Shown: positions 89-63,440, counted from the whole stretch's first letter. The stretch is DNA of 63,490 nucleotides, filler included, from Candidatus Huberarchaeum crystalense (GCA_002790315.1; 5 parts of 5 records of this genome joined end to end with filler, not necessarily neighbours in it); one strand, 5' to 3'. Notes: generated by a model from the letters alone, not told the origin. A program made the numbers and translations.

Positions 89-215
89 AAATTATTTGGG
101 TAAAATTACAAAAAACCATCGGAGGACTATAGAGATTTTAAATAAGGAATTTCAAATAAAATATTGTTTATTTGTAAGCGCGCAAACTTTTAATTTGTTG
201 ACAGAAAAAATTTAA

Positions 216-289
216 GGGGTTGTAGTGTAATTTGGTTAGCATATCAGCTTCGGGAGCTGGTGATCTGAGTTCAAATCTCAGCAATCCCA
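216..289 (+). tRNA. tRNA-Pro(CGG)
   Basis: Acceptor GGGGTTG/CAATCCC, anticodon arm TCAGC-TT CGG GA-GCTGG, T-loop TTCAAAT; no intron, CCA not encoded. Confidence 0.95.
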
Positions 290-374
290 TTATTTCATAA
301 TGTCTTGCCTTTCTCGTATTTGTCATACTTTTCCGCTCAGAGCAGTTCGACATATTTTTTATTATTTGCCATTT

Positions 375-656
375 TTATTTCAGCTTTTTTGTTACTTGGT
401 TTTCAATATTATCAACATCTAAATATAATGCTTTAGCACAACTTTTAATCGCATCTACAGCATCTCCATCTTGCACTTCAACAAACACTTCAAGATTGTT
501 CAATAAAGGATTTTCCTCACGGTAAATTGCCTTAGCATTAAGATCTCTTAATTTGTCAACAAGCGCGCCCCATAGTGTAATGTCTTTATAATCAGTAATT
601 TTGATGTTTATGCTCGTTTTTGTTTTTTCAAGGATTTCTACTTTTGGTTTAACCAT
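375..656 (-). CDS. rpoL: DNA-directed RNA polymerase subunit L (Rpo11)
   Basis: 93 aa; D-I-T-L...L-V-D-K-L...A-I-Y-R-E-E-N-P-L pattern of RpoL/RPB11, divergent. Confidence 0.75.
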   Translation of the reverse strand: MVKPKVEILEKTKTSINIKITDYKDITLWGALVDKLRDLNAKAIYREENPLLNNLEVFVEVQDGDAVDAIKSCAKALYLDVDNIENQVTKKLK

Positions 657-692
657 AATATTATTTACATTGATTTGAAATAAAATTTTTTA

Positions 693-1991
693 TTAAACTA
701 TTTTTTGTTGAGATTCACCAATTTTATCAAATAATGACTTTTCATTTTTTGCTTTAATTATTGTTTTAAAAATATTCACAACGCGCGCCTCAAAAGCTGC
801 ATTTGTCTCGCCATCTTGCTTTTCTAAATTCAAGTTATTCATCAATGTTTTCAGAATTTCTAATTGATTAAATCCAAAATCAGCGCACATTTGTTGGTGG
901 ATTTCGGTTTTTGCTATCTCTTCAATCGCGCGCCTTTCAATTTCTTCAACACACTCACCGCTTTGTTGGTAATCTATTTTAATTATATCTGAATCTTCAA
1001 TTTTGTTGTTAATTAAGATGCAATAAGGTTCAAAACTTTCAAGTGCGCGCACATACTCTTTAATTTCAATCTGTTTCCCATTAGTTTTACCCTTTAAAGT
1101 CAAAATTACAATTTTATCTTTAAGATCTTTTGTTTGATTATTTATTTGTGCGTTAATATCAAGCTCTACTTTGGCTTTTATTTCGAACACACCCTTTAAT
1201 TTTATTTCGCAAACCTCAACCTGACTCGCAAACTTGCCCTTGTTTTCAGAAGTGCTAACAATTACATATGAACCACTTTCAAGTTTGCGAAGTTCATCAA
1301 TATTTGTAGGAAACAGCGGCCCAGGATAAACTACAACACCATATCCTCTACTATTAAAATCTACTATTTTTCTTATGTGAATATGGCTTGCTGCATAATA
1401 ATCAAATTTTTGTGGAAGTTGATTGAGAGTTATTCCTTCAATAAATGGAAATTCTTGGCCTAAAATTTCAGAGACCAAATTATGAAATACAAAAATCGCA
1501 TAGCTATTTGGATGTTCGATGGAGTTGCCGAATAAAAATTTGTCAAGACCGCGCCGTTTTCCTCCAATACCTATAATGTTTGCTTGCGTCTTCGCATCAT
1601 TAGTAAATATGCCTGAATTGTTTGTTTGTGTATTTATATTTTTAGTAGATTCTCCTAAATTTTTAGTTTTATCAACATTAACCACAATCTCTGCTTTTTC
1701 CAACAAATCAACAACTGACTCGCCAAGAACAGAGACATCATGCGACCCGCAAATTAAATAAATAGGAATTTTTGCATATTTCAACTTCATTAGCGCGTCA
1801 ATTGTGCGGCCAATCAAATCAAAACCCACAAAAGGCTTGTCAAACAAATCACCTGCGATGATAACAAAATCAACTTTTTGAGATGCAGCTTCTTCGCACA
1901 CTTTTTCCAATGATGCAATTCCTAACTCCTGTAATTTAGGCACAGAATCCCAAGATCCAATGTGTGAATCAGCAAAATGAATAAATCTCAT
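693..1991 (-). CDS. mre11: Mre11/SbcD-family DNA repair nuclease
   Basis: Metallophosphoesterase motifs ADSHIG, AGDLFD, GSHD, FH, SHIH, YPG. Confidence 0.9.
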   Translation of the reverse strand: MRFIHFADSHIGSWDSVPKLQELGIASLEKVCEEAASQKVDFVIIAGDLFDKPFVGFDLIGRTIDALMKLKYAKIPIYLICGSHDVSVLGESVVDLLEKAEIVVNVDKTKNLGESTKNINTQTNNSGIFTNDAKTQANIIGIGGKRRGLDKFLFGNSIEHPNSYAIFVFHNLVSEILGQEFPFIEGITLNQLPQKFDYYAASHIHIRKIVDFNSRGYGVVVYPGPLFPTNIDELRKLESGSYVIVSTSENKGKFASQVEVCEIKLKGVFEIKAKVELDINAQINNQTKDLKDKIVILTLKGKTNGKQIEIKEYVRALESFEPYCILINNKIEDSDIIKIDYQQSGECVEEIERRAIEEIAKTEIHQQMCADFGFNQLEILKTLMNNLNLEKQDGETNAAFEARVVNIFKTIIKAKNEKSLFDKIGESQQKIV

Positions 1992-2231
1992 ATAATTTTT
2001 GCTTGTTGTTGCTAAAAAGAATAAAAATTAAATAGAGAGGACTTGTTTTTGTACAGCATTTAATTTTTTAATAATCTAATTATTTTTCTCATTTGTAGGA
2101 GGAATCTTAATTTTTATTTTAATTTAGTTTAAAAACCACTTATATTTTGCAGTTTTTCAGAATTAGTAAGACATCTTCATTTTAAAAAAGTGCTAAAAAG
2201 CTTATAATTTACGAATGGCGCGCACGCTGCT

Positions 2232-2708
2232 TTACTTTTGCACACCACGATTTAAAATTTTCGTCACAATAAATGATTTATATTTGCTTATTTTTCTGCA
2301 TTCTTGAATTTCAACAGTGTCGCCGCTTGCTGCGTTAATTTCTTTTGGGTTGTGGGCTTTTATTTTATGGGTTCTTGTGTACTGCAAATGATATTTTGGA
2401 TAGATGTCTTTTGTTTGAGTTTTTACAACAACAGTTTGATTCATTTTGTCGCTAACAACCAAGCCAATTAACTTAATTCCGCGAGGAATTACATTTTTTC
2501 TTTTGACAATAAAGTTTAGGCTGATTTTTTCAGATTTTTGATCCTTAATTTTACTTATTTGTGTTGTTTGTTGCTTTGCTTTTTCTTGCTGTTTTTGAAT
2601 AATTTGTGCTTTTATTTCCCTGAATTTTTCTGGTTTTTCTGGTTTTTCACTAGATTTAGCCCCTTTGCTAGATAGTACATCTGTTTGTTGAGTTTGTTTT
2701 GTAACCAT
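2232..2708 (-). CDS. rps17: 30S ribosomal protein uS17 with long Lys/Gln-rich N-terminal extension
   Basis: GLVVSDKMNQTVVV, KIKAHNP, GDTVEIQECRKISKYKSF. Confidence 0.95.
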   Translation of the reverse strand: MVTKQTQQTDVLSSKGAKSSEKPEKPEKFREIKAQIIQKQQEKAKQQTTQISKIKDQKSEKISLNFIVKRKNVIPRGIKLIGLVVSDKMNQTVVVKTQTKDIYPKYHLQYTRTHKIKAHNPKEINAASGDTVEIQECRKISKYKSFIVTKILNRGVQK

Positions 2709-2773
2709 AATATTTTAATGAAAGTTTGATTAAATTTGTTAGAGTATTTGTTGTTATATAAATACAATAATTT

Positions 2774-3304
2774 ATGAAGACTGTTTTAATTATAATAGCA
2801 CAACGCGGATTTCAAGATTATGAGTATTCTGAAACTCGAAATAAGTTAGAATCTGCTGATGTTAAGATTGTTGTGGCAAGTGTAAGTAAAGGAATTTGCT
2901 ATGGAACTTTTGGCTCAACAGTCAAACCAAATCTATCTCTCGATGAAGTAAATATCTCTGATTTTAACGCGATTGTTTTTATTGGAGGAGAAGGTATGTC
3001 TGCTGTTAGGCAATCATCTGATGCAACGAGAATTGTATCTGAAGCACACAAATCAGGCAAAGTTATAGGGGCAATTTGCTGGGCTCCAACGATTTTGGCA
3101 AAATCAGGCATTTTACAAGGAAAAAAGGCGACTGTTTGGCTTGGTTATGATGATGAGTTTAAACTAACAACCGACAAATATTTAGAGCAAAGGGGCGCGC
3201 ACTTCACAGGCGAATCAATAACAGTTGATGGAAAAATTATTACTGCAAACGGACCAGCAGCTGCTAAGATGTTTGGAGATATGTTGAGCAAATTATTAGA
3301 TTAA
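2774..3304 (+). CDS. DJ-1/PfpI family protein
   Basis: FQDYEY, AIVFIGG, GAICWAP (nucleophile Cys), DGKIITANGP. Confidence 0.93.
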   Translation: MKTVLIIIAQRGFQDYEYSETRNKLESADVKIVVASVSKGICYGTFGSTVKPNLSLDEVNISDFNAIVFIGGEGMSAVRQSSDATRIVSEAHKSGKVIGAICWAPTILAKSGILQGKKATVWLGYDDEFKLTTDKYLEQRGAHFTGESITVDGKIITANGPAAAKMFGDMLSKLLD

Positions 3305-3361
3305 AGTATGATTGTGTTTGCGCGCACTTATATTTACAAATTTCAATAAAAAAATAAAAAT

Positions 3362-3457
3362 AAACACAAATAAAGGAAAAGCATTTAACAAACACAAATA
3401 AAGGAAAAGCATTTAACAAACACAAATAAAGGAAAAGCATTTAACAAACACAAATAA
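3362..3457. repeat. Tandem repeat, 28-bp unit AAACACAAATAAAGGAAAAGCATTTAAC, 3.4 copies, running into an N-gap
   Basis: Exact copies start at 3362, 3390, 3418, 3446. Confidence 0.95.
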
Positions 3458-3565
3458 NNNNNNNNNNAATTATCGTTAGGGTGTGAACAACTTATTGGGC
3501 TTTTCCTTTTTGCCACTGACAATTACTGCCTCGCGCCATTTAATATAAAACCCTTTGAAATAAGG

Positions 3566-4129
3566 ATGATCGAAACAGCGCTGAATATCAAAACAATAAA
3601 GGCAAAAATATACAATTCTTCATTTTTAGGACTTTTTTGTGCTGGAAATTCAAAAAAACTGCTTATAAGCGACGTAATTACTGCTGATGAGCTTCAAGAC
3701 CTAAAAAACCAACTAAAAACCATAGAAATAGGTCTATTTAAATCAAAAAACAACATAATAGGCAATTTAGTAATTGTGAATGATAATGGACTTGTTATTG
3801 ACAGTTCTTTGGAAAAAGCAGAAATACAAACTATTGAAAAATTTTTTGAAATGACTGCGCTTGTCTTATTTCCAAAAAAAGATATTTTGTTGGGTTCTGA
3901 AATTGTTGCTACAAATAAAGTTTGCTTTGTTTCGCGCAATTTTAACAAAGATGAGCGCGCCAGAATTGAAAAACATCTTAAAGTTCCTGTTTTTGAGGTT
4001 TCTGTGAATTTTGGACAAACAGCGTTGCATTCAGGAATAGTGGCAAATTCAAGTGGATTGGTTGTAGGTAATCAGACGAGCGCGCCAGAATTGACAACTT
4101 TATATCAAATTGAGCAAAACTATAAATAA
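3566..4129 (+). CDS. eif6: Translation initiation factor 6 (aIF6)
   Basis: FLGLF, IIGNLVIVNDNG, IVATNK, IVANSSGLVVGNQTSAPEL pentein repeats. Confidence 0.85.
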   Translation: MIETALNIKTIKAKIYNSSFLGLFCAGNSKKLLISDVITADELQDLKNQLKTIEIGLFKSKNNIIGNLVIVNDNGLVIDSSLEKAEIQTIEKFFEMTALVLFPKKDILLGSEIVATNKVCFVSRNFNKDERARIEKHLKVPVFEVSVNFGQTALHSGIVANSSGLVVGNQTSAPELTTLYQIEQNYK

Positions 4130-4135
4130 AACAAT

Positions 4136-4366
4136 ATGGTAGATATAAAAGAGATTATTGTTACTGCAGGAATTGTGACAGCAGTGTATTTGATTATAGA
4201 GATAATTGTCTTCCACCTTGGATTTTTGCCTAGTTCTGTGTTTGGCACAACAACCTACACATTTAGCATAGAAATTAAAGCAGTGTTGGGATTTATAGTT
4301 AGTGGAATAATTTTTCTTATAGTGTTTTTAATATTTCAGGCAATAAAAAATAGAAAAAATAATTAA
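4136..4366 (+). CDS. Small membrane protein (2 TM), unknown function
   Basis: Two hydrophobic stretches; 6 nt downstream of aIF6. Confidence 0.65.
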   Translation: MVDIKEIIVTAGIVTAVYLIIEIIVFHLGFLPSSVFGTTTYTFSIEIKAVLGFIVSGIIFLIVFLIFQAIKNRKNN

Positions 4367-5123
4367 ATGTTGTTTTTTAAATATTAGTAGCGAAAGTATC
4401 AAGCACATTTTGTATATATACAATATCTATGATATAACTTTGTATAATTGGATCTTTTATTATCTTTTTAACTTCTTTTTTTATTTCTAAATTTCTAATA
4501 TATTGTCTTCGTTCTTTAACAATTCCATTTTCTTAATATATATTTAACTTACTTAACTCACTTGACTTATCTAACATATCTAACTCATATTTTTTCTGTT
4601 TCTAGATATAATATCTTAATGACATCCCTTCTTTTAGTTTATTAGTATATTTCATATATTCCTCCAATTCTTTTTTTTTGCTCACTATTATATTCTATAT
4701 ATCCCCCCGAAGTTTTTTTAAAAAACGTCTCTAATCTTCCCTATGTATTTTTAGAAAAATAATATTTATAATCTTTTCTCTTTTTTTACCAAAACGCGAA
4801 GAATAAATCATATCAATTTTAATTTTAGCAATAATTTCAAAAAAACCCAGAAAAGAATAGCGAGATATATCAAGTATGCTTAATTCCGCTTTTTTTATAT
4901 CTATCATAATTAAAACAAATATTATTATTACCTATAATATTATTATGTTGGAGTATTTAAAAACCCACAAAAATAATAAAAAAACAAACACTAAGAAGTA
5001 TATTTCAAATTTTAAAAATGCGCGTTTTCTACACTTTTGTAGGTAAAAATCCAAGAAAACCCTNNNNNNNNNAAACTCTACAAAACATATTATATGCGGA
5101 TGTAAATATACCCTGGGAGGAAG

Positions 5124-5136
5124 GGCTTTATATCTA
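5124..5136 (+). promoter_or_regulatory. Putative TATA box of the 16S rRNA transcript
   Basis: GGCTTTATATCTA about 55 nt upstream of the 16S 5' end, preceded by a purine-rich BRE-like stretch. Confidence 0.5.
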
Positions 5137-5183
5137 AGTGCAATTATTGTATGCGAAAGAAGAAAGAAGTCGCCAATTTCATA

Positions 5184-6644
5184 TATCTGGTTGATCCTGC
5201 CAGAGAGTGCTACTATCAGTGTTTGATAAGCCATGCTAGTTGAGAGGTGTAAGACCTCGGCGCACCGCTGAGTAACACGTGAAGAATTCGCCCTGAAATG
5301 CAAGATAAGCTCGCGAAAGTGAGAATAATATTGCATAGAAGATATTATTGAGATATGTATCTTTAAAAGATTTATCGTTTCAGGAGAACTTTGCGTCTTA
5401 TCAGCCTGTTGGTGGGGTAATGGCCCACCAAAGCTACGACAAGTACGGGAGGTGAAAGCCTTAGCCCGCAGCTGGTTACTGAAACATGGAACTAGGTCCT
5501 AAGGGATGCAGCAGGCGCGAAATTTCTGCAATGCGCGAAAGCGCGACAGAGAAACGCTGAGTGTTTTAGGCATTTTTGTTTAAAGCTTTTACTGAATTTA
5601 AAAAGTTCAGAGAATAAGGAGTGGGCAAGACGAGTGGCAGCCGCCACGGTAATACTCGCTCTTCAAGTGGTACTCACGATTATTTGGTTTAAAGAGTCTG
5701 TAGCTGGTTTGGTAAGTTTGCACAAAAAACTCAGAACTTAATTTTGAGACTGCGCAAAAACCGCCAAACTTGAGAATGAGGGGAGTTATCTTTGGTCCCA
5801 GAGTAGCGATCAAATGTGTTGATACTGGGAGAAAAAGCAATAGCGAAGGCAGATAACTAATTCATATCTGACAGTGAGAGTCGAAGGCTAAGGTAGCAAA
5901 GTGGATTAGATACCCATGTAGTCTTAGCAGTAAAGGATGCAATTTAGGTGGATGATTAGCTTTGTGCTAATTATCTGCGTTACAGCGAAAGCGTTAAAAT
6001 TGCCACCTGGGGAGTACGGCCGCAAGGCTGAAACTTAAAGGAATTGGCGGGGGAATACTACAAGGGGCGCGACCCGCGGTTCAATTGAATAATACACCGG
6101 AAAACTCACCTAGATTGACAGCAGAATGATGGTCAACCTAAAGGGATTACCTAACACGCTGAAAGGTATTGCATGGCCGTCGTCAGTTCGTGCCGTGAGG
6201 CGTTTTATTAAGTTAAATAACGAACAAGACCTGAGCTTACACTTACTATCTCTAAAAGAAGTACTGTGTAAGGACCGCTAGCGCTAAGCTAGAGGAAGGT
6301 TCAGGCAACGATAGGTCTGTATGGTCCGAATGTCTAGGGCTACACGCAGGTAACATTGATAAAAACAACGAGTTGCAACGCCGAAAGGTGAAGCCAATCT
6401 CTAAATTTTATCTTAGTTTAGATCGAGGATTGTAACCCATCCTCGTGACACCGGAGTCCCCAGTAATCGCGCGTTATCATCGCGCGGTGAATATGTCCCT
6501 TTTCCTTGCACACACCGCCTATCAAACCAATCAAGTATGGTCGGAATGCAAAATTATCTTTGGTAGTTTTAAGTTCTGGCTATGTGAGAAGGGTTAAGTT
6601 ATAACAAGGTATCCGTAGGTGAACCTGCGGATCGATCACCTCCT
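5184..6644 (+). rRNA. rrs: 16S rRNA (archaeal, divergent, not followed by 23S)
   Basis: 5' TCTGGTTGATCCTGCCAG, GGATTAGATACCC, AAACTTAAAGGAATTGGCGGGG, GCATGGCCGTCGTCAG, 3' GATCACCTCCT; ends approximate. Confidence 0.98.
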
Positions 6645-6762
6645 TAAAATCTTCTTTTGCATACAAATCAACAAAAATCAATCAAAATATAATTTTATAA
6701 TTTTTTATGTTTTGCTGTAAATTCTCTAATTTTATATAACTACAATAATTGCCTTTTTTAGG

Positions 6763-6858
6763 TTTTGCTGTAGATTTTCTAACGCATACTCAAATAATCA
6801 CTAATCTTATATTTTGCTGTAGATTTTCTAACGCATACTCAAATAATCACTAATCTTA
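6763..6858. repeat. Direct repeat, 49-bp period, 2 copies, ending at an N-gap; partial copies near 6709 and 6869
   Basis: TTTTGCTGTAGATTTTCTAACGCATACTCAAATAATCACTAATCTTA at 6763 and 6812. Confidence 0.9.
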
Positions 6859-6993
6859 NNNNNNNNNNGTAAATTCTCTAATATGCTTAAACAATTATCT
6901 TATTGCAGCCACAACACACTTTTGCCTTTTTCCAAACTTTTATTTGCGCGCAACACATTTTTGCTTCTTTTTTCAAAACACCCAAAAAATTAT

Positions 6994-7065
6994 GGGCTGG
7001 TAGCACAACGGTAGCGCGTCTGCTTTGCAGGCAGGAGGTTGTGGGTTCAAATCCCACCCAGTCCA
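6994..7065 (+). tRNA. tRNA-Ala(TGC)
   Basis: GGGCTGG/CCAGTCC acceptor with G3:U70, anticodon loop TT TGC AG, T-loop TTCAAAT. Confidence 0.96.
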
Positions 7066-7134
7066 TAAAATAGAAAACAAACAAAATTTGCACACACCAC
7101 CTGCTCTCTTTATAGATTTTACTTAAAAACTTAC

Positions 7135-7563
7135 TTACAAACCATCTTCACTAATTTTTTTGTGTTTATGCGTCAAAAGATATATATCTATTATTACAAA
7201 CACTAAAACAACACAAACAACATATGTCTTGCTCGCAATCTCCACAGAATAAAATACAAAAACACTAAACAAAATCCAAAAAATTGTGAAAATTCCAATG
7301 TTTTTAAGGTTTCGCTTTTTTAATTCCTGCCAAATTCCCATCCCAGACATTCCAAGAAGTATTGCTAACAATTCAAATGGAGGGGTGAAAACATCAAAAA
7401 CCCAAGCAAGTAGCAAGATTCCCCACATAGCCACACACGCATAGCAAAAACCGCAATAAAAAACATTAAATCTTGCTTTAATCGGCTGACGTAAGATTGC
7501 GAAAATTATAAATAGCAAAACAAAAAACAGCGCAAATATTAAGAAAAATAGGGAATTAAGCAT
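7135..7563 (-). CDS. Membrane protein with CxxC (CGFC); paralogue of the C-terminal domain of the upstream gene
   Basis: 4-5 TM segments; shares RQ.I, CxxC, LLGM..G.W.ELKK and GIFTIFWI with 7565-9325. Confidence 0.8.
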   Translation of the reverse strand: MLNSLFFLIFALFFVLLFIIFAILRQPIKARFNVFYCGFCYACVAMWGILLLAWVFDVFTPPFELLAILLGMSGMGIWQELKKRNLKNIGIFTIFWILFSVFVFYSVEIASKTYVVCVVLVFVIIDIYLLTHKHKKISEDGL

Positions 7564-7564
7564 T

Positions 7565-9325: not shown

Positions 9326-9377
9326 AATTTTTTAATTAAATTTTAATATTGTTAGAAACAACATACCTCTAACTAAT

Positions 9378-9911: not shown

Positions 9912-9912
9912 T

Positions 9913-10122
9913 TTAGTTTTTATTATCTACTCTTTTATTCATATAAATAATATCTATTCCAATGATGATCAAAAGAATTGGCCAAAGATCTGTTGTATCA
10001 AAACCAAAACCCATTTTTCCAAGAATACCTAATTTATCTAATAAAAAAATAACGCCGAGAACAATTAATATTACTCCTATCATATATGCGTTGTTTTGTA
10101 CAGCTTCTTTTTCTCCAACCAT
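9913..10122 (-). CDS. LiaI/LiaF-like (DUF5668-type) small membrane protein
   Basis: GVILIVLGVIFLL..LG...LWPILLIIIG. Confidence 0.8.
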   Translation of the reverse strand: MVGEKEAVQNNAYMIGVILIVLGVIFLLDKLGILGKMGFGFDTTDLWPILLIIIGIDIIYMNKRVDNKN

Positions 10123-53373: not shown

Positions 53374-53554
53374 ATTGTTTTTAAAAACATTTAGCATCTA
53401 TGAGGAAGTCCTGTTTGCTAAAATAATAGCATTTTTCAAATGTGCTAATTCTATTAAGAGCAGAATGATCTATTTTATCTTTCCACAGAGAACAAATAAT
53501 TTTAAATGTATACTCATTATTACTTCGTTTTTAGGTATTTCTTCCTTGCTTATC

Positions 53555-54103: not shown

Positions 54104-54183
54104 ATATTATTTAATATAAAGTATAAAAGGCATTATTTACAATCTTATAATTTAATTAAAAAAATTAACAGAAAGAATTTTGC

Positions 54184-54265
54184 GCGGAGATGGCGGAACG
54201 GTAACGCGCTCGTCTCGAAAACGAGTGCCAGTGATGGTATGTAGGTTCGAATCCTACTCTTCGCA
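54184..54265 (+). tRNA. tRNA-Ser(CGA), long variable arm, discriminator A
   Basis: GCGGAGA/TCTTCGC, anticodon arm CTCGT-CT CGA AA-ACGAG, variable arm TGCCA-GTGA-TGGTA, T arm GTAGG-TTCGAAT-CCTAC. Confidence 0.92.
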
Positions 54266-54740
54266 TTAACAAGTATAACCTATGATTTGTATTTTGTTTA
54301 TAAGTTTAAGTTTGCATTGCCGTGCAATTGTCTCAAAAGAGTAATTTGTTTTTAGTTTAGCAAAATAGCGCATATTTTTGCACTAAAATTAAACTTTTAG
54401 AATTTTGTAAATTGATTTGATCGCGCGAAAAAGAATCTTTTTCAACAACATAATATTCCTATATTAGTTCAACAATTGCCAAAGATCAGGCATTATATTT
54501 CTATAATTACACCCCTCACTCTTTTGCCTAATATAACCAGAACAATACACTCAAAAGTTAGATTTGTTGAATCAACAGTTTTTTCAAATTAAAAAAACAC
54601 TATTTTTTTGCTTGCTTGAATATGTGATTGGCGCGCAAAGGCGCGCCACTATTTTTACTCAAACAAGTTTGTATTTTTATTAAATAAATATGCTTTTATT
54701 TAACCTGCCACAATAATATCTTTTCGCCAAAATTATACTT

Positions 54741-56277: not shown

Positions 56278-56360
56278 AAATTTGTTTTTATAAATTTATA
56301 AATTGGTGTTTTATGAAGTAAAGAGTTGTGTGTAGTAGTTGCTAATTAAGTAAAAAGATT

Positions 56361-57482
56361 ATGGTTGTTGCAATAGTGATTGGAACATGGGCAGAGTTAA
56401 TTAAAACATTTCCTGTTATGCTTGAATTAGATAAGCGAAAAATTCCTTGGGTTTTCATTCACACAGGACAACATAATCTCGGCGATGTTAGTGTTCTTGG
56501 AATAAAAAAACCAGACATTGTTTTAACAGAACCTCCACAAAAAGGTGTAACCACAAAATTTTTTGCAAAGCTTAAAAAAGCTACTTTTTGGAGTACACTT
56601 ATGATTCCGCGAATTATGTTGGCTCTAAGAAAGATTAAAAATTTAAGATATGTCCTTTATCATGGAGATACCATGTCAACTTGCTCTGCTGCAATTGCTG
56701 CATCAAAATTATTAAATCCATTTAAAAAATATAAAAATGCTCATCTTGAAGCTGGCTTGCGTTCTGAAAGTTTATTTGAGCCCTTTCCTGAAGAAATCTC
56801 TCGCCATATTTCAGATAAGCTTTCAGACATTCTTTTTGCAGTTTCTGACAGGAGTGAACAAAATTTAAAAAACAGCATTCTTCATTTTGGAAAAATATAC
56901 AATGTGGGTAATACAATTGTAGATTCAACGATTCTTGCTTTAAGAATTGCAGAAAAAAACAATATTAAAACACCTATTAAAAAATATGCTTTGGTTACAA
57001 TTCACAGAGATGAAAATATTAGGTATAAATGGCGACTTGAAAGAATTGTTGACATTCTTTTAAAGATCCCAATTAAAACATATTTTCCACTTCATGACAA
57101 CACAAAAAAAAAATTAATGGATTATGGTCTTTATAAAAAATTAAAAAAAGCAAAAAATATAAAAATTTTAAAACACAAAAACTATATTGAATTTATAGCG
57201 TGGCTTAAAAATTGTAGTTTGTTAGTTACAGATGGAGGTAGTATCCAAGAAGAAAGTTTAGTGTTCAAAAAACCTTGTATTTTATTGCGTAAAAAAACAG
57301 AAAGACAAGAAGGTCTTGAAACAGGATTAAATTTTCTTACAGATCTAGATATTAATAAAACTGAAGAATTTATAAAATTAGTACTTAATCCAAAGTATAA
57401 AATACCGAGCTTCAAAAATCCTTATGGGGAGTTTGGTGTATCAAAGAAGGTTGTTGATGTTTTAGAAAGGTGTTTGAAATGA
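56361..57482 (+). CDS. wecB: UDP-N-acetylglucosamine 2-epimerase (non-hydrolysing)
   Basis: GT..ELIK, HTGQH, HGDT, HLEAGLRS, PFPEE, GNTIVD, TIHR.EN, TDGGSIQEE, TERQEG, NPYG. Confidence 0.95.
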   Translation: MVVAIVIGTWAELIKTFPVMLELDKRKIPWVFIHTGQHNLGDVSVLGIKKPDIVLTEPPQKGVTTKFFAKLKKATFWSTLMIPRIMLALRKIKNLRYVLYHGDTMSTCSAAIAASKLLNPFKKYKNAHLEAGLRSESLFEPFPEEISRHISDKLSDILFAVSDRSEQNLKNSILHFGKIYNVGNTIVDSTILALRIAEKNNIKTPIKKYALVTIHRDENIRYKWRLERIVDILLKIPIKTYFPLHDNTKKKLMDYGLYKKLKKAKNIKILKHKNYIEFIAWLKNCSLLVTDGGSIQEESLVFKKPCILLRKKTERQEGLETGLNFLTDLDINKTEEFIKLVLNPKYKIPSFKNPYGEFGVSKKVVDVLERCLK

Positions 57483-57528
57483 TACTTAATTTAAGGCATA
57501 GCGTAACAAAAAAGAACATCTGTATTAA

Positions 57529-57671
57529 CTTAAATTTTTAACTAAACTAAACATTAATTATTCAAAAGACATAATTAAAAAAATAGAAGGGGTGAATTAA
57601 AAATCAGAAAATTCAAAAATCCTTATGGTGAATGGGGAGATAGTAAAAAAATTGTTGATATATTAAAATGA
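57529..57671 (+). pseudogene. Degraded 3' fragment of a second wecB allele
   Basis: LKFLTKLNINYSKDIIK and, after a frameshift, KFKNPYGEWGDSKKIVDILK align to the WecB C-terminus LNFLTDLDINKT...SFKNPYGEFGVSKKVVDVLE. Confidence 0.7.
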
Positions 57672-58215
57672 AAATACTTGATATAGGTTGTGGCAGAAAT
57701 AAATACAAAAGTATAACTAAAGAGGATATAGTTATAAGTTTGGACAGAGTAAAATTACATAGAGTTGATATTGTTCATGATTTAGAAAAATTTTCGTTGC
57801 CTTTTAGAGATAATGAGTTTGATAAAGTAATTGCCTTTCATGTTTTGGAACATATAAAAAATTTTATTCCATTAATGGCTGAATTACATAGAATAATGAA
57901 GGCAGGAGCAATACTTGAAATAAAAGTTCCTTTTTATTCAGCCCAGGTGTGCAATATAATGATCCAACGCATAAAAGATTTTTCACCCTTTTTACCTTTG
58001 ATTACTTTAGTAAAGGTGCATCTGCCCACGAAGTTAATGGAAGTAGAGTACAATTCAAAGTTAAAAAAAGAAAAATAAATTTTGGAGGTCAAAGTAAAAT
58101 TATGAACAAATTTTTTAATCCTCTTTTGAATTTAAATCAAAAATTTTATTGTATATTTTTTGCTTGGATTTTTCCAGCAGCAGAGATAGAATATATAATA
58201 ACATCCATTAAATAA
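57668..58215 (+). pseudogene. Class I SAM-dependent methyltransferase with a frameshift near 57940
   Basis: LDIGCG, DIVHDL, LPF..NEFD, HVLEH, VP in frame A; DPTHKRFF in frame B. Confidence 0.8.
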
Positions 58216-58218
58216 AAT

Positions 58219-58895
58219 ATGAAACAAATTAAAATCTACCTACAATATCCTTGGGTGGTTTCTGACAGTTCGTATTATAAATATTTGATAAACAATTCTC
58301 CAGAAAATGTAGANNNNNNNNNNNNNNATGATTAGAAAAATTACTGGTTTTTTAAACTTACCCATCCCTAATGCTCATTTAACAAGGTCAAAAGAAAAAT
58401 ATGATTTAATTCACTGTGCACATTGTTTAAGTTTAAATAATAAAAATCCTTGGGTTGCAGATGTAGAATGTTTATGGTCTTTGTGGGTTTCTGGACAAAA
58501 TAGCATCATAGGTAAGAAAATAGTTAGAGAGATACTCTTAAGAAAAAATTGTAAAAAAATCCTCCCTTGGACAAATGTCACAAAAAACGAGATCGAAAAG
58601 TTTTTTCCTGAAATTAAAAATAAAATAGAAGTTGTTTATCCTGCTGTTCCGTTAGTCAAGATAAAAAGCAAACGGCACAAAGAAATTAATCTCCTATTTA
58701 TCAGCAGATATTTTTATGAAAAAGGAGGATTGCACGCTTTGGAAACAATTAATCAGTTAACAAAAAAATATGAAAATGTTTCTGGGATTGTGGTTTCAGA
58801 AGTTCCAAAAGAAATATTAAATAAATATTCCAAAAATAAAAAGATAAAATTCTATGAATTAATGCCTCAAAAAGAATTGTTTGAAAATATTTTTC
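58219..58895 (+). CDS. GT4 glycosyltransferase, partial (gap, then linker)
   Basis: YDLIH, KIEVVYP, LLFISR.FYEKGG. Confidence 0.85.
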
Positions 58896-59002
58896 NNNNN
58901 NNNNNNNNNNNNNNNNNNNNNNNNNNNNNNNNNNNNNNNTTAATTAATTAANNNNNNNNNNNNNNNNNNNNNNNNNNNNNNNNNNNNNNNNNNNNAGATC
59001 AG

Positions 59003-59397
59003 ATGGATATAATATTAAAAACCACGTCAAAAACCCAACAAAACCTTAATAATACAATAAAAAAACTAAAAGAATGTAACATTTCTGAAATAAAAATAAG
59101 AGATGATAATACTTATACTCTAGAAGAACTGGAAAATAAAAGGGATATACTTGAATGTAAAATAAAAAGAGTTACAACATATAATGAGCTTTTTATTAAA
59201 GAGTTAATGCATAGTAACTGTTATGATAGATATATTAAAAGTAGGTTAGATTATAAAACAGATATTAAAATTTTTGATGCGGTTATATTGTATTCTACTA
59301 ATGTAATAGCAGTTATGGAAGATATAACAAAGATTAATAATGAGTTGGGACAACTTAATAATGTTTTTCCGAGTTGTAAAGATACTAAGAATGATAC
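59003..59397 (+). CDS. Hypothetical protein, gap-interrupted
   Basis: More than 130 open codons; no family recognised. Confidence 0.45.
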
Positions 59398-59654
59398 NNN
59401 NNNNNNNNNNNNNNNCTTTTACTAAAATTTAAATAGTAGTGGATTTGAAGTAACAGAAATAATATAAGAAGGACCTAATGATAAAAATATAACTAATAGT
59501 GTAATTTATTAAAAAAGCATAAACACCATTAGGGTGTCATTTCTCACTATATAAGTTGTTATTTATAACAACATTTTGTTGGCAAAAACAACAACAGCGC
59601 CAGCATTTGACTTCTCCAAACATGGGGTTTTTAAATAAGAGTAGTAAATACATT

Positions 59655-61889
59655 ATGGGAGGAAGAGAAACAAATAAAAAAGTGAACGTTAGCACAAGTG
59701 TTATGCTTGCTCTTTTTACAGTTATATTTGCATTTGTTTCTATAATCTCAACTTTGTGTTTTGCCACTAATTGTACTCAAAATTACAATGGCAATTATAT
59801 GATATCTTGGAGCTTTACAGACAGCAATGCTACACAGGTGAATGAGACATATATTTCTCCAACAGGAAGCATATTTACAACAACAATATGGAACCGCGCT
59901 AGTGATCCAAACAGAACAAATATTACTTATATAAATAAGGCATCAGGAACTTATATTTATGATGTTTCAAAGAATGTTTCAGGCACGATTTATACAATTC
60001 AACAATGGCAATGTATTAGAGTAGATGCTTGCAAAAACACAATAAAAGCATTTGTTTTTGATAAAGACAATAAACAGATTAGCAATGCTAAGGTTACGCT
60101 TTCTTGCGATTATTTAAGCACTTCAAAAACAGCAAACACAAATGAAAATGGTATGGTTGAATTTACTGGTGTGCCAGCAAGTTATTATTCTAACACAAAT
60201 TGCAATTTAAGTGTTAATTATACTGGTTTGGTTACAACAAAAACATTTTTAATACACCAAGGCAAATGTGGGGTAGTTTATGATTATACTTTTGCTTTAA
60301 GTTACACAGACGCTCAAGTATATTTAAGTGTCTTAAAACTTGAAGATGGATTTTACAAGCCAATGCCAAATCTAACAATAAGAATGGTAGGAACAAATAA
60401 CCAAATTTATGTTGAAAAAACAGATCAATACGGGGCAATTTTAAAAACAATATTGCCTGGAACTTATAATGTTAAGATAATACAAAAAGGCATTATTTTA
60501 AAGGAGTTTACACTACCTGCTTTAAGTTATAGGCAGAACTATTCGCAAGAAATTGTTTTAACTGATTACCAATACAACACAGATGATAGCCGTGATGTTG
60601 GATGCAGTCAAAAACCATGCAATGCTATTATAATTACACCTGTTCTTTCAAACATTGTTGCAAAATCAGGAACATCAAACCAAGTTAAATTGCGCGTGGA
60701 AAATCTAGAAAATGTAGATATGGAATTTTACATAACTTTTGATAGCCCTGCTTCTAAATTTTTTACACAACAACAGAAAAAATACACTGTAAACGCAAAC
60801 TCTATCAACATCTTTGCTTTATCATATTCTGTGCCAAAACAGGTTGTAACAGGAAGTTATGAGCTTGGAATCAAGGCGCAATATGATTGCTATTGTAGCC
60901 AAACAAGCAAAGTTGTTTTTGACATAGAACAAGTTATTCAAAAAGTTAAACTTCCTGACGAAGGTATTGATTTATATGATTCTGTGGTTTGTTTTGGCAA
61001 GACTAAAACACACAAGCTAACAATAACAAATAATGACTTTGAATCAAAAACATATTCTTTTTCTGCTGATGGAATACCTTTATCTTGGATAACAATTAAT
61101 CCTGCGCAGCAAACAATTGCAACAAATTCATATGCAAATGTTTCTGTTGTTTTGAGAATTCCAGAAAGTGCAACAGAAGGAAATTATAATTTAGGAATAC
61201 GCGCAAAATCAAAAGATGGAGATGAAAAATACTTTTCAGCAGAATTTTTTGCAAAAAACTGCAAAGAACCAACACTTGCAGAACTTTTTAAGGTTTCAAT
61301 GCCAGAAAAAATAGAAGTTAATCAAGGACAAAATAAGAGTTTTGTTGTTGAAATTGAAAATTTAGACAAGGTCGCACACACCTTTCAAATCTCTTTTTCA
61401 GGAGTTTCTGATCAATGGATAGTAGGTGATAAATTTAAGCAAGCAGAAAGCTTTTCAAAAACAACATCTGTTTTTACAATTGCTGTTCCTGATTTAAATC
61501 TCTCAAATTTTACGCGCGATGTTGGTGTTTTTGTTAAAGATGAAAAGAACAGGGTTGTCTTTACCAAAACATTTAATCTTGCAGTTAGCAAAACTTCTAT
61601 AGTTAACGAAACAAAAGCAAATCAAACCATTAGCTCAGGATCTATTTCAGGGTTTTTTACATCTGTTGACGAGAAAAAAGGCATTTTGGGTTTGATTTTC
61701 ATTATAATTATTGCAGCAGTGGCAGCTGTAATTTATTACAAACAACTCAAAGGAAAAGGACTATTAAACAATAGCAGAGATGCAACCTTTGCTAAGATTA
61801 ATACTGATACTCAAAATACCAAACAAAATATAGATTATATATTAAATGGAACTTTAAACTCTGATGTTGGCGGCAAGTTTGAAAAGTAG
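59655..61889 (+). CDS. Large surface protein: signal peptide, repeated beta-sandwich (Ig-like) domains, C-terminal membrane anchor
   Basis: T.ENG...F and KTD.YG..PGTY.V carboxypeptidase-regulatory-like repeats; three V.N...VP....G.Y.L repeats; many N-x-S/T sequons; SISGFF then TM helix. Confidence 0.8.
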   Translation: MGGRETNKKVNVSTSVMLALFTVIFAFVSIISTLCFATNCTQNYNGNYMISWSFTDSNATQVNETYISPTGSIFTTTIWNRASDPNRTNITYINKASGTYIYDVSKNVSGTIYTIQQWQCIRVDACKNTIKAFVFDKDNKQISNAKVTLSCDYLSTSKTANTNENGMVEFTGVPASYYSNTNCNLSVNYTGLVTTKTFLIHQGKCGVVYDYTFALSYTDAQVYLSVLKLEDGFYKPMPNLTIRMVGTNNQIYVEKTDQYGAILKTILPGTYNVKIIQKGIILKEFTLPALSYRQNYSQEIVLTDYQYNTDDSRDVGCSQKPCNAIIITPVLSNIVAKSGTSNQVKLRVENLENVDMEFYITFDSPASKFFTQQQKKYTVNANSINIFALSYSVPKQVVTGSYELGIKAQYDCYCSQTSKVVFDIEQVIQKVKLPDEGIDLYDSVVCFGKTKTHKLTITNNDFESKTYSFSADGIPLSWITINPAQQTIATNSYANVSVVLRIPESATEGNYNLGIRAKSKDGDEKYFSAEFFAKNCKEPTLAELFKVSMPEKIEVNQGQNKSFVVEIENLDKVAHTFQISFSGVSDQWIVGDKFKQAESFSKTTSVFTIAVPDLNLSNFTRDVGVFVKDEKNRVVFTKTFNLAVSKTSIVNETKANQTISSGSISGFFTSVDEKKGILGLIFIIIIAAVAAVIYYKQLKGKGLLNNSRDATFAKINTDTQNTKQNIDYILNGTLNSDVGGKFEK

Positions 61890-61940
61890 GGTTTGGTATG
61901 AAAGATTTTAGCTTTTTTTAAACCATTTGCTAAATATATT

Positions 61941-62114
61941 ATAGGTATAGGTGAAATAGTTAAAATACCAGATGACGCGTCAAGCTTTTTTCAAGGAATT
62001 ATAGTTGGAATTATTCTTCTGGTAGTTCTTGTATTTTTAAGTACAATGATAATAAATGTGTTTGAAGGTTTTGGTTATAATATTAACATATGCGGTCTTG
62101 TTTGTGGTAAATAA
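61941..62114 (+). CDS. 57-codon single-TM microprotein with Cx3C, starting at ATA (non-canonical or mutated start)
   Basis: IGIGEIVKIPDDASSFFQGIIVGIILLVVLVFLSTMIINVFEGFGYNINICGLVCGK; upstream sequence matches that of 62168. Confidence 0.5.
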   Translation: MGIGEIVKIPDDASSFFQGIIVGIILLVVLVFLSTMIINVFEGFGYNINICGLVCGK

Positions 62115-62167
62115 ATCTAAGTTTTGATTTTTGTTTGTTCTTTTTTAAACCCTTTATTAAATATATT

Positions 62168-62329
62168 ATGATAGCAACAACAGAAAAAACAAAAAGTGCG
62201 TTCATAAAATATGTTCTTGTATTTTTACTTGGTGCAGCAGCAGTATTGGTTGTGATTATTGAAAATAATTATATTGCTCGTGAACTTGGATTTAATATTT
62301 GCAATATACTATGTAATATTTTGAAGTAG
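62168..62329 (+). CDS. 53-aa single-TM microprotein with Cx3C
   Basis: MIATTEK...TM...LGFNICNILCNILK; TTTAAA box about 25 nt upstream. Confidence 0.6.
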   Translation: MIATTEKTKSAFIKYVLVFLLGAAAVLVVIIENNYIARELGFNICNILCNILK

Positions 62330-62444
62330 TTGTGTGCAGACATATTTTTAGCAATATTTGTAGAATTTTAAGATAAATTTTATAGCTTGAATTTAGTATT
62401 ACTTATTTTTTGTTGACTTTAAGGCAAGTTGTTTACTTATTTTT

Positions 62445-63440
62445 TTAATTCTTGTTTTTTTCTTTATAAATTATTAGAAGTTCGCGCGTAACCATCAATA
62501 AAATAGGACCTATTATTAAGCCAATTACACCAAATAGCATAAATCCGCCAGCATAACCAATCAATACCATCAAAGGATGAAGCTCAAATGCACCTGCAAA
62601 TCTAATTCTTAAATAATCATCAACTGTGCTTAAAATTAGCAAACCGTGTAAAAGCACAATAAGTGAGCCAAACAAGTTGTCATTTATCAATAAGTAAAAT
62701 GAAATTGGCAAGTAAACAAGTGTAGGTCCGACTTTAGGTATAAAACACACTATAAAAAGGCATGTCAAAATTAAAGGCAAAAAAGGGAGATCTAGTACAA
62801 AATATAATGGCAAAGAGAGCATAACAGCGATTATCGCATAAACAACTTGCAAAAAAACAATATTTTTTATACCATTTTCAATAACTAACTTTATTCTGTC
62901 ATAGTGTTCAAAAGTTAAAAGATGTTTAAAACTTTCGTTGATTTGAGGCCCGTCTTTCAAAAAATAAAAAAACGCAAAAAGAAAAAGAATTCCATACACC
63001 AAACTGTCTCCTGCAAGTGTAACGCTTTTTGAGCTAAGTTGGGATATAAATGTTGAAATTTGAGCAAAAACATTTGTTATAAAGTTTGTAAAAGGAATTT
63101 TTATGCTCTCTAAACCAGAAGCAGATAAACCTTTGTCTAAATTTTGCAAGATTGCATATTGAAGGTTTATGAGATTGTAAGGAATATTTTTAAGCAAGTA
63201 TGCAGAAAAGTAAATGACTATTCCTAACATTGCGGTTAGACCTGCACCCAGCACTATAAATGCAGATAATGCGCGCTTTTTAACAATTTTTTCAAGCATA
63301 TTGACAAATGGCAGCAAAAAGTAAGAAACAATACCTGCAAAAATCAAAAGATTTACTAACTGAAAAATTAAAGCAACACCAATAACTATTGCTAAAAATA
63401 AAAAAGAGTTGGTTTTTGTCAGTTTTTCTGCGATTCTCAT
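62445..63440 (-). CDS. AI-2E (PerM/UPF0118) family transporter
   Basis: FYFLKDG, FIP.VG, DDYLR, LHPL..LIG..GG...FG..GLIIGP. Confidence 0.93.
   Translation of the reverse strand: MRIAEKLTKTNSFLFLAIVIGVALIFQLVNLLIFAGIVSYFLLPFVNMLEKIVKKRALSAFIVLGAGLTAMLGIVIYFSAYLLKNIPYNLINLQYAILQNLDKGLSASGLESIKIPFTNFITNVFAQISTFISQLSSKSVTLAGDSLVYGILFLFAFFYFLKDGPQINESFKHLLTFEHYDRIKLVIENGIKNIVFLQVVYAIIAVMLSLPLYFVLDLPFLPLILTCLFIVCFIPKVGPTLVYLPISFYLLINDNLFGSLIVLLHGLLILSTVDDYLRIRFAGAFELHPLMVLIGYAGGFMLFGVIGLIIGPILLMVTRELLIIYKEKNKN

Follow-up and report, generated by a model that had tools for sequence, protein, structure and literature searches.

The DNA analysed here, referred to as the window, is 63,490 nucleotides long, filler included. 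It consists of five contigs of one assembly (4.5–19.6 kb), which are unordered and joined by 44 N + TTAATTAATTAA + 44 N, and holds 54 genes and 62,960 non-N bases with a GC content of 30.9%. The source is an uncultured, AT-rich groundwater archaeon whose 16S rRNA and proteins are archaeal. Its membership of the DPANN, assumed in an initial annotation of the same DNA, cannot be taken as given: of the named relatives, the closest is a MAG labelled as Euryarchaeota, and the window contains genes for aromatic amino-acid and nucleotide biosynthesis. The sequence of contig 4 recurs in three metagenome contigs (L003–L005) with an identity of 99.4–100%.

All five contigs carry the palindrome GCGCGC, which occurs 76 times at 67 separate places. 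Nine of these places read GCGCGCGC, and at one site the word is extended to CGCGCGCG. The sites and the genes poor in them are listed below; a slash joins two starts within one place.

178–19445, unstranded: GCGCGC sites of contig 1 (window 1–19638), 26 places, 1.33 per kb. Starts, first half: 178, 563, 783, 928, 1045, 2218, 3195, 3320, 3955, 4080, 6946, 7695/7697, 7990; remainder: 9292, 9673, 10482/10484, 11138, 13037, 13189/13191, 14522, 16486, 17166, 18152, 18610, 18790, 19440.
20945–23701, unstranded: GCGCGC sites of contig 2 (window 19739–24361), 7 places, 1.51 per kb. Starts: 20945, 21361, 21544/21546, 21856, 22039, 22649, 23696.
25647–42183, unstranded: GCGCGC sites of contig 3 (window 24462–42615), 20 places, 1.10 per kb. 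Starts, first half: 25647, 27037, 27725, 29629, 29891, 30899, 32682, 34138, 34957, 36662; remainder: 36819, 37305, 38146, 38534, 39081/39083, 39731, 40504, 41047, 41597/41599, 42176/42178.
42716–43325, minus strand: N-terminal part of a giant secreted protein rich in Cys, motif-poor, running off the contig.
44818–56175, unstranded: GCGCGC sites of contig 4 (window 42716–58895), 13 places, 0.81 per kb, all inside this range. Starts: 44818, 46544, 47280/47282, 48095, 48645, 49368, 49945, 50969/50971, 52684, 54068, 54631, 54641, 56170.
54629–54648, plus strand: pair of sites 10 bases apart in a spacer, forming an 8-bp G+C hairpin ahead of a T run.
56361–61889, plus strand: motif-poor glycan and surface genes (Pfam), crossing from contig 4 into contig 5.
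63271–63276, unstranded: sole GCGCGC site of contig 5 (window 58996–63490), 0.22 per kb, inside a gene for an AI-2E family transporter (62445–63440).

The initial annotation had counted 55–60 sites by hand, which falls short of the true 76; 17 of its 18 example coordinates are exact, and the other, 42177, is off by one (real starts 42176 and 42178). The density amounts to ~1200 per Mb, or about one GCGCGC per 800 bases. For a window of 31% GC, a zero-order model expects 0.9 occurrences (observed/expected, O/E, 85) and a first-order Markov model 2.31 (O/E 33). Dinucleotide-preserving shuffles (n = 100) gave a mean of 2.36 and a maximum of 7, with 0 of 100 reaching 76 (O/E 32). The over-representation is thus confirmed and is stronger than had been claimed (76 vs 2.4 in dinucleotide shuffles). 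Other palindromes in the window are, unlike GCGCGC, strongly avoided. A general excess elsewhere, which had been named as grounds for refutation, was not seen: none of the control genomes (26 + 301 + 1 = 328, of unreported GC content and with no true relatives among them) comes near this density of GCGCGC.

One explanation to be weighed is that the excess is an artefact of composition, produced by codon or dipeptide preference, by the packing of G/C runs, or by slippage in (GC)n microsatellite or Z-DNA tracts. An order-4 Markov model expects 68.4 GCGCGC and so seems to explain the count, but models of high order argue in a circle in this case, as the hexamer accounts for 65% of all GCGCG. Among the 64 hexamers made of G and C only, high counts are confined to those containing GCGCG, and the median of 1.5 speaks against an effect of composition. 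Repeat slippage predicts CGCGCG to be as common as GCGCGC, whereas this mirror word stands alone at only 8 places, compared with 67. On these counts, and with so few extended sites, a (GC)n microsatellite or Z-DNA tract was rejected; alternating G-C of six or more bases is generally suppressed in prokaryotes, according to the accessible part of PMC4060949.

Ala-Arg and Arg-Ala pairs show a 1.5-fold enrichment, as an artefact of dipeptide preference would have it. Yet the 70 sites within called genes use all three frames (24/19/27), and six further sites lie between genes, where 0.04 would be expected (~150-fold), which bears out the earlier claim of sites in different frames and in spacers. 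When synonymous codons were shuffled with the amino acids and each gene's codon counts kept (n = 500), 7.2 ± 2.9 sites were obtained, with a maximum of 18, against the 70 observed. Codon use is therefore insufficient as a cause, as the initial annotation had argued, and the control for amino-acid sequence and dicodon bias that it had put forward as a possible refutation leaves the excess in place under codon and dipeptide control. We give the compositional explanation, tested in these ways and not supported, next to no credence.

GCGCGC is instead kept in core genes at about one per 0.8 kb, whatever the frame or coding status. Synonymous slots are filled in 70 of 144 cases (49%), where 5.2 would be expected; the word is thus written in half of the places that the proteins permit. 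Of 48 Ala-Arg pairs, 24 are written as GCGCGC. The proteins themselves are bent to accommodate it. Outside the motif-poor island, there are 142 slot peptides where 80.9 would be expected (1.8-fold excess), and in aEF-2 and an aminotransferase, 4 of 6 sites carry a residue that is lineage-specific or in the minority relative to 116–118 distant homologues. In relatives of 80–90% identity, the word could stand at 5 of the 6 sites, as judged by a protein-level proxy (aEF-2 3/3, aminotransferase 2/3); one aminotransferase site is missing in an 80% relative (VRA vs LKV).

Genes contain 1.39 sites per kb and intergenic DNA 0.55. This higher density in genes would suit a signal at the RNA level, in which a self-complementary word, present in every transcript from either strand, pairs with other copies or is the target of an RNA enzyme. 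The site pair in the spacer on contig 4 does fold as a stable hairpin (TGGCGCGC-AAAG-GCGCGCCA; −17.3 kcal/mol, z = −3.2). However, sites in spacers still far exceed expectation, GCGCGC is absent from the 16S rRNA gene (5184–6644) and from five tRNAs, its position inside genes is uniform (KS P 0.88), and the accessible text of PMC5861425 reports no RNA or peptide role for the cyanobacterial palindrome HIP1. A role in RNA thus appears highly improbable.

The sites are also more evenly spaced than chance would have it (P 0.0002 to 0.005), on a local scale. The coefficient of variation (CV) of the spacing is 0.73 against 0.985 expected (P 0.005), and 0.775 against 1.02 when conditioned on slots (P 0.0002); the per-gene dispersion chi-square is 24.8 against 46.9 (P 0.002). 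All 23 core genes longer than 720 bp contain GCGCGC. Such evenness implies that the underlying process senses distance or density.

Few GCGCGC lie in genes for surface, secreted and glycan functions. The run at 56361–61889 encodes a UDP-GlcNAc 2-epimerase, a small Methyltransf_11 protein, two unknown proteins and a 777-aa Ig-like protein. It contains 0 GCGCGC and only 2 synonymous slots (0.41 per kb vs 3.12 per kb elsewhere); from the amino-acid composition, 5.4 slot peptides rather than 2 would be expected. As contigs 4 and 5 are joined artificially, the site-free 'gap' of 7.1 kb covers two contigs. The giant Cys-rich protein is at least 1869 aa long (ORF 16562–22168 in L003, 3' end open) and has MopE and DUF11 domains; its ORF has a single GCGCGC within 5.6 kb and offers 3 slots where 4.7 would be expected. 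The site-free genes are of the surface, secreted and glycan kinds, and their foreign origin is putative. The four ranges described earlier as foreign-looking do lack sites. Three of the four are shorter than 700 bases, so that a count of zero is unremarkable there (P(0) 0.45–0.72).

Even spacing, a site in every long core gene and a density near 1 per kb would all be expected if GCGCGC were a protein-binding site that acts without methylation, such as that of a nucleoid or chromosome-organising factor, or of a receptor for the uptake or recombination of self-DNA like the DUS and USS of Neisseria and Haemophilus. Selection would then keep at least one site per ~kb, and plain selection of this kind fits the even spacing equally well. 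The altered amino acids and the scarcity of the word in surface and glycan genes agree with this explanation; the DUS is likewise scarce in recently acquired genes. The compatible aEF-2 and aminotransferase sites in the relatives are what conserved sites would look like, and the HIP1 literature, in its accessible parts, leans to nucleoid structure (PMC5861425) or DNA uptake (PMC13756078). Six G/C-only bases are, however, common in GC-rich foreign DNA and therefore make a poor self mark. The flanking preferences outside GCGCGC are weak at +1 and +2 and absent from +5 on, so nothing past +2 lengthens the site, and the window holds no candidate reader or competence genes. A protein-binding site without methylation is thus conceivable but rather unlikely, also because a stepwise ratchet explains the graded excess of one-off variants described next more directly.

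One-off variants of GCGCGC have an O/E that falls from 6.4 for positions 1/6 through 3.2 for positions 2/5 to 1.3 for positions 3/4. Among all CGCG in the window (n = 200), G stands on the left in 57% and C on the right in 60%, against a background of 15.6%, and 42 have neither flank. The two flanks are partly dependent (odds ratio 1.9, P 0.03), and recognition of the whole hexamer therefore fits as well as that of a core plus flanks. C-to-T products, when set against control variants, are present in excess in one case (GTGCGC 17 vs GAGCGC 8), in deficit in another (GCGCGT 11 vs GCGCGA 22) and level in the third (GCGTGC 5 vs GCGAGC 5.5). With no consistent excess or deficit, there is no signature of deamination or of short-patch repair, which counts against a mark by cytosine methylation.

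A genome that drifts to GCGCGC from any sequence a single step removed from it, through biased mutation, repair or gene conversion independent of methylation, would also show one-off variants in excess with an outside-in gradient, and the word would then be a functionless by-product. CGC and GCG codons are raised also outside complete sites, CGC making up 26% of Arg codons in a genome of 31% GC, and sites do turn over, as in the aminotransferase. Elhai makes the case, in the part of PMC4390886 accessible to us, that alternate HIPs could be epiphenomena. A context bias, on the other hand, predicts random or clustered use of slots, and the sites are under-dispersed. Nor is there a known enzymatic basis for a bias that replaces conserved-type residues and fills half of the slots, and the compatibility of 5/6 sites in relatives also counts against it. 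We consider a by-product improbable.

The reading we tentatively prefer is that GCGCGC is a HIP-class palindrome in an archaeon, with a word of its own, which would stem from a cytosine-methyltransferase mark combined with a ratchet or selection. The word is probably read through cytosine methylation of its CGCG core. A putative methyltransferase would recognise CGCG or the whole hexamer and mark the sites, and the left G and right C of the core would then each be favoured. This may happen by a repair step biased to the marked strand, which is Elhai's ratchet and would level off at around one site per kb; alternatively, selection may act for a methyl mark across the genome, which could serve repair, recombination or the uptake of the organism's own DNA. 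In genes of recent arrival or rapid turnover, such as those for surface, secreted and glycan functions, the word may have yet to accumulate. The outer-to-inner gradient of one-off variants supports the HIP-class explanation, as the same gradient has been reported for HIP1 and predicted from the ratchet by Elhai (accessible part of PMC4390886). Archaea possess a persistent group of orphan m4C methyltransferases for CGCG, HG12, in the section of PMC10609329 available to us, and two methylases read HIP1 according to the accessible text of PMC13756078. Among the 54 genes of the window, searches with Pfam, and for unannotated proteins also with PADLOC and NCBIfam, found no DNA methyltransferase, restriction enzyme, Vsr/Mig-type or MutS/L gene. 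To our knowledge, MutS and MutL are missing from most archaea; since Elhai's ratchet requires them, this counts against the ratchet.

Going further, the lineage may have independently evolved a HIP-type 'punctuation' of its chromosome: a methylated six-base palindrome with regulated spacing of <1 kb across all core genes, serving as a strand or self mark for a system of repair, recombination or uptake not known from archaea. We offer this as a possibility on the unlikely side. If a cognate methyltransferase is found, the two would make a simple pair for testing ratchet against selection. The word may also be of practical use as a marker, as genes of this lineage that are free of it are candidates for recent acquisition, and contigs could be binned by GCGCGC.

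How does this palindrome compare with known systems? The DUS of Neisseria and the USS of Pasteurellaceae are short over-represented words that occur about once per kb and in all frames of genes, affect the encoded peptides and mark the organism's own DNA; they are 9–12 bases long, non-palindromic and dependent on known competence machinery. GCGCGC, a hexameric palindrome with weak flank preferences at +1/+2 only, does not belong with them. The same six bases are the site of BssHII-type restriction-modification, for which protective m5C methylation is documented (accessible part of PMC3459991). A genome that houses an active restriction system normally avoids the recognition sites of that system (accessible part of PMC4687349), and since GCGCGC is 33–85-fold in excess, this assignment was rejected. 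Archaeal orphan methyltransferases, as far as the accessible text of PMC10609329 goes, resemble the present case in reading short palindromes, including a CGCG core, for purposes other than defence. They differ in that the survey gives enzymes and no site excess, with sites of 4–5 bases and no known link to this lineage.

The closest parallels lie among the cyanobacterial HIPs. HIP1 proper was rejected, as GCGATCGC occurs once in the window and the host is archaeal. The likeness is nonetheless extensive: HIP1 is a short G+C-rich palindrome found near once per kb, in every frame and between genes, scarce in some gene sets and of unsettled function. Its density of 300–2700 per Mb and fold-excess of 55–228 (Elhai 2015, accessible part of PMC4390886), or 15–300 (Xu 2018, accessible part), compare with ~1200 per Mb and 33–85 here, in agreement with the comparison to HIP1 drawn in the initial annotation, and its one-off variants likewise peak at the outer positions and are scarcest at the centre (PMC4390886). 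HIP1 differs in having eight bases rather than six, in belonging to another domain of life and in having known cognate methylases; its periodicity spans 10–90 kb (Xu 2018), whereas the evenness seen here is local, on contigs of limited length. Comparable, too, are the alternate HIPs GGCGCC of Calothrix PCC 7103, GCsGC of Cyanothece PCC 7822 and rCCGGy of Oscillatoria PCC 10802, G/C-rich palindromes of five or six bases which, at a similar density, take the place of HIP1 in scattered lineages. Elhai derived them from a methyltransferase core with flanks driven to G...C, the pattern that CGCG follows here. All are cyanobacterial and each is tied to a resident methyltransferase gene; GCGCGC does not occur in the accessible text of that study (PMC4390886). 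In copies per Mb and fold-excess, in its use of all frames and non-coding DNA, in its independence of codon use and in its outer-to-inner gradient of one-off variants, GCGCGC matches the HIP class.

For three decades HIP1 has resisted explanation, and we know of no published HIP case from outside the cyanobacteria. The palindrome described here would be a second, independent case, in another domain and with another word, and any explanation of HIPs could then not depend on cyanobacterial biology, nor, probably, on MutS/MutL. It shares with HIP1 the same statistical fingerprints, namely slot saturation, bent proteins, the one-off gradient and about one site per kb, and adds to them a measurable evenness of spacing.

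The hexamer GCGCGC occurs 76 times in the window, at 67 separate places, nine of which read GCGCGCGC. Base composition predicts 0.9 copies and a first-order Markov chain 2.31, and none of 100 dinucleotide-preserving shuffles reached 76 (mean 2.36, sd 1.58, maximum 7). The excess reported in the initial annotation is thus upheld by a Markov-normalised comparison at first order. At orders 2, 3 and 4 the expectation rises to 23.8, 47.4 and 68.4, and the maximum-order odds ratio of the hexamer is about 1.1. These higher-order expectations are circular, and we reject them: the hexamer itself accounts for most occurrences of GCGCG and CGCG. The base following GCGCG is C in 152 of 234 cases on both strands (65%), against a background of 15.6%.

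Ranked by excess, GCGCGC comes first of the 64 palindromic hexamers (85-fold), followed by its mirror CGCGCG (32-fold) and a third word at only 3-fold. The 64 hexamers made solely of G and C have a median count of 1.5, and every word with a high count includes GCGCG or CGCGC (GCGCGC 76, CGCGCG 29, GGCGCG/CGCGCC 20, GCGCGG/CCGCGC 8). With the excess confined to these words, it cannot stem from a broad tendency to cluster G and C. A slipping (GC)n repeat is also ruled out, since the word has a defined phase: 21 of the 29 copies of CGCGCG overlap GCGCGC and just eight are free-standing, including two in the 16S gene.

Strong avoidance is seen across the whole window for several other palindromic hexamers. 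GTCGAC, CCTAGG, ACCGGT, TCCGGA and CGTACG are absent (4.4 copies expected of each), while ACTAGT and TACGTA occur once each, ATCGAT twice and AGTACT three times (21 expected of each). This pattern resembles the avoidance of restriction sites and hints that several restriction systems are, or once were, active.

GCGCGC is a DNA word and not a coding habit. Seventy sites lie inside the 54 called genes, in all three frames (24/19/27), where they read as Ala-Arg, x-Arg-Ala or [Cys/Gly/Ser/Arg]-Ala-x. Six further sites lie in spacers, for which 0.04 are expected (11,107 bases, 24.7% G+C), so the initial annotation was right to place the word in differing frames and between genes. Its claim that codon use does not explain the excess also stands up to synonymous shuffling within genes, which preserves each protein and the codon counts of each gene: 500 shuffles gave 7.18 ± 2.87 sites with a maximum of 18, against the 70 observed. 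This null is generous, because the word itself inflates the codon counts. CGC makes up 26% of Arg codons, Ala-Arg is spelled GCG-CGC in 24 of 48 pairs, and Arg-Ala begins with CGC-GC in 33 of 47. If we count as a slot every place where the protein permits GCGCGC by synonymous choice, 70 of 144 slots carry the word (24/48, 19/54 and 27/42 by frame), whereas 5.2 are expected from codon use.

A few individual sites deserve comment. The site at 27725 is counted as genic, but lies in a doubtful ORF overlapping a tRNA gene. Together with those at 178 and 6946, it is located 11-48 bases upstream of a tRNA (216-289, plus strand; 6994-7065, plus strand; 27642-27714, minus strand). Given the differing distances, this closeness may be due to chance. 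Two further pairs of sites lie close together:

54629-54648: two sites 10 bases apart that together make a hairpin (perfect 8-bp G+C stem, AAAG loop), with a T run after it
3953-3971 and 4078-4096: two sites 125 bases apart in the eIF-6 gene, with a 17-base context common to both (GA-GCGCGC-CAGAATTGA)

The hairpin (-17.3 kcal/mol, z -3.2) is situated in the spacer that separates a tRNA from the gene after it, and looks like a terminator. The eIF-6 pair makes up a short intragenic direct repeat.

The window comprises 63,490 bases, of which 530 are N, and has a G+C content of 30.9%. The filler at 19639-19738, 24362-24461, 42616-42715 and 58896-58995 consists of 44 N, TTAATTAATTAA and another 44 N, and forms a six-frame stop linker. 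Because the window is five contigs of one assembly (1-19638, 19739-24361, 24462-42615, 42716-58895 and 58996-63490) joined end to end, gene order and distances that span the joins carry no meaning. In line with this, the match of three metagenome contigs from the same population to the window ends exactly at one join spacer. Besides a full-length archaeal 16S rRNA gene and five tRNAs, the window encodes CDC48, aEF-2, aIF5B, aIF2-gamma, RadA, RFC, many archaeal ribosomal proteins and NrdD, a gene content that identifies the organism as an archaeon. The following features stand out:

5184-7065: complete archaeal 16S rRNA gene, then one tRNA
22099-23487: unusual fusion of an MtrA-like domain, thymidylate synthase and a pterin-binding domain, 462 aa
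37643-39607: unusual fusion of prephenate dehydrogenase, chorismate mutase, prephenate dehydratase and ACT (TyrA-chorismate mutase-PheA), 654 aa
40940-42439: family B DNA polymerase ORF with the exonuclease domain only, 499 aa, ending 176 bases before the contig end at 42615

No 23S gene comes after the 16S gene, and the genes next to it lie on the opposite strand, which suggests that the rRNA genes are not linked. Among named relatives, the closest is the MAG 'Euryarchaeota archaeon HGW-Euryarchaeota-1' (aEF-2 87%, aminotransferase 80% identity). The next aEF-2 matches have 48-49% identity and are labelled mostly as DPANN groups, which makes DPANN membership possible. The presence of biosynthetic genes speaks against a highly reduced symbiont. 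The same population was detected in all 24 listed groundwater and aquifer runs (21 studies). A scan of metagenome contigs with a close-family alignment returned, among the matches listed, three contigs, all of this population, and an aEF-2 scan of the species genome collection gave nothing beyond a Methanobacteriaceae match at 42% and a fragment from a bacterium.

The density of GCGCGC in the window is 1.2 per kb. In 26 Methanobacteriaceae genomes sampled around L001 we counted 0-22 copies per 1.5-2.9 Mb, and in 301 genomes sampled from the phylum of Methanobacteriaceae the highest count was 212 in 2.2 Mb (0.1 per kb; reversed control 184). A Gastranaerophilales genome had 16 copies in 2.0 Mb, and two control-genome loci of 34-36% G+C had no site in 16 kb. 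Enrichment at a comparable level was not seen in the 26, 301 and one genomes searched, whose G+C content is not given. Many of the 301 genomes contain GCGCGC about twice as often as the reverse CGCGCG, at very low counts (55/19, 41/18, 47/23), which is a mild general asymmetry. A published survey (PMC4060949) describes alternating G-C runs of at least 6 as generally suppressed across prokaryotic phyla. The open-access literature returned no account of a GCGCGC excess or of any iterated palindrome in archaea, and the open-access texts matching 'highly iterated palindrome' and archaea were all cyanobacterial or methodological. Neither 'archaea' nor 'GCGCGC' occurs in the text of Elhai 2015 (PMC4390886).

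Sites are scarce in two regions:

56361-61889, plus strand: motif-poor island of glycan and surface genes, lying across the join of contigs 4 and 5
42716-43325, minus strand: N-terminus of a giant, cysteine-rich secreted protein (8% Cys; at least 1869 aa), truncated in the window where the contig ends

Contig 5 has one site in 4.5 kb and the last 2.7 kb of contig 4 have none. These two stretches encode a UDP-GlcNAc 2-epimerase, a small-molecule-type methyltransferase, a 777-aa Ig-like protein and unknowns. The island holds two slots where 5.4 are expected; with two slots only, a Fisher test is not significant, and the informative part is the scarcity of slots. The giant secreted protein continues in a metagenome contig of the same population (L003:16562-22168), where it carries MopE metal-binding repeats and a DUF11 domain, and its gene has one site in 5.6 kb and three slots against 4.7 expected. 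Of the genes that had been described as foreign-looking and free of sites, the one at 42716-43325 is therefore indeed poor over the 5.6 kb covered in L003, while two others are too short for a zero to be meaningful. The poor genes are surface, secreted and glycan genes, a usual part of the flexible genome, and we infer that they are recent arrivals. Contig 5 could alternatively be a binning error, but with one GCGCGC and two CGCGCG in 4.5 kb it is still far above chance.

GCGCGC is distributed more evenly than chance. Within contigs, up to 56,300, the spacing has a mean of 805 bases and a CV of 0.73, against 0.985 ± 0.122 for random placement (P 0.005). When equally many sites are drawn at random from the slots present, the CV is 1.02 ± 0.10, compared with 0.775 observed (P 0.0002). 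The per-gene dispersion is likewise low (chi-square 24.8 vs 46.9 expected, P 0.002), with a maximum of three sites per gene, and all 23 genes longer than 720 bases, a threshold picked after viewing the data, have at least one site (P 0.007). The position inside genes is uniform (KS P 0.88). Such evenness is unlike the prediction of a purely context-driven mutation bias, and a neutral bias that produces the word therefore fits in part only. By analogy, and from the anatomy of the word, we prefer a methyl-marked word at regulated density. The sites would be marked by a cytosine methyltransferase specific for CGCG or the hexamer, and their density would be held regulated via a repair bias to the marked strand or via selection for the mark. 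The main rival dispenses with methylation and takes the word as a protein-binding, nucleoid or uptake site kept by selection; it fits the even spacing equally well.

The proteins are bent to fit the word. Outside the motif-poor island, 142 slot peptides were found where amino-acid composition predicts 80.9, an excess of about 61 that is near the number of occupied sites. We compared the residues at three sites in aEF-2 with 116 distant homologues and at three sites in the aminotransferase with 118. One site in each protein falls on a universal peptide (MRA in aEF-2, CAP in the aminotransferase). At the other four of the six sites, the residues are lineage-specific or in the minority: in aEF-2, VRA is I/V-P-A or A-L-A in others and AR is V-K or V-R; in the aminotransferase, VRA is P/V-K-A in others, and GAL is found in 26 homologues against GGL in 77. 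Relatives with 80-90% identity retain five of the six site peptides, the exception being LKV in the HGW MAG. This protein-level proxy suggests that the word is common to a wider clade, with some turnover. A binding or uptake site would account for this conservation equally well. Outside its own clade, the aminotransferase (36481-37608) has its nearest homologues, of 49-55% identity, in entries labelled Abyssubacteria, Planctomycetes, Chlamydiae and Jettenia; it may be of bacterial origin, and yet it has three GCGCGC sites.

Analysis of the 54 called genes of the window did not reveal a DNA methyltransferase, a restriction enzyme or a mismatch-repair gene, and PADLOC and NCBIfam searches with its unannotated proteins returned nothing relevant. 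Support for a methyl-marked word comes from a persistent group of orphan m4C CGCG methyltransferases in archaea (PMC10609329), from the m5C protection of BssHII sites (PMC3459991) and from the cyanobacterial palindrome HIP1, which two methylases recognise (PMC13756078).

The word itself has nearly information-free flanks, with weak preferences at +1 (P 0.018) and +2 (P 0.002) and none from +5 outward. Its core CGCG (200 copies) is preceded by G in 57% and followed by C in 60% of cases; both flanks are present in 76 copies, G only in 38, C only in 44 and neither in 42 (odds ratio 1.9, P 0.03). Unextended GCGC is about as frequent as expected (50 vs about 55). Words that differ from GCGCGC by one base are 6.4-fold in excess for a change at positions 1/6, 3.2-fold for 2/5 and 1.3-fold for 3/4. 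A neutral bias fits this gradient. We found no signature of deamination or short-patch repair among the one-off words. In the ratchet described in Elhai 2015 (PMC4390886), the bases on either side of a methyltransferase core are pushed towards G...C, which predicts an outer-to-inner gradient. Such a gradient of one-off words, like that of GCGCGC in the window, is reported there for the cyanobacterial iterated palindrome HIP1.
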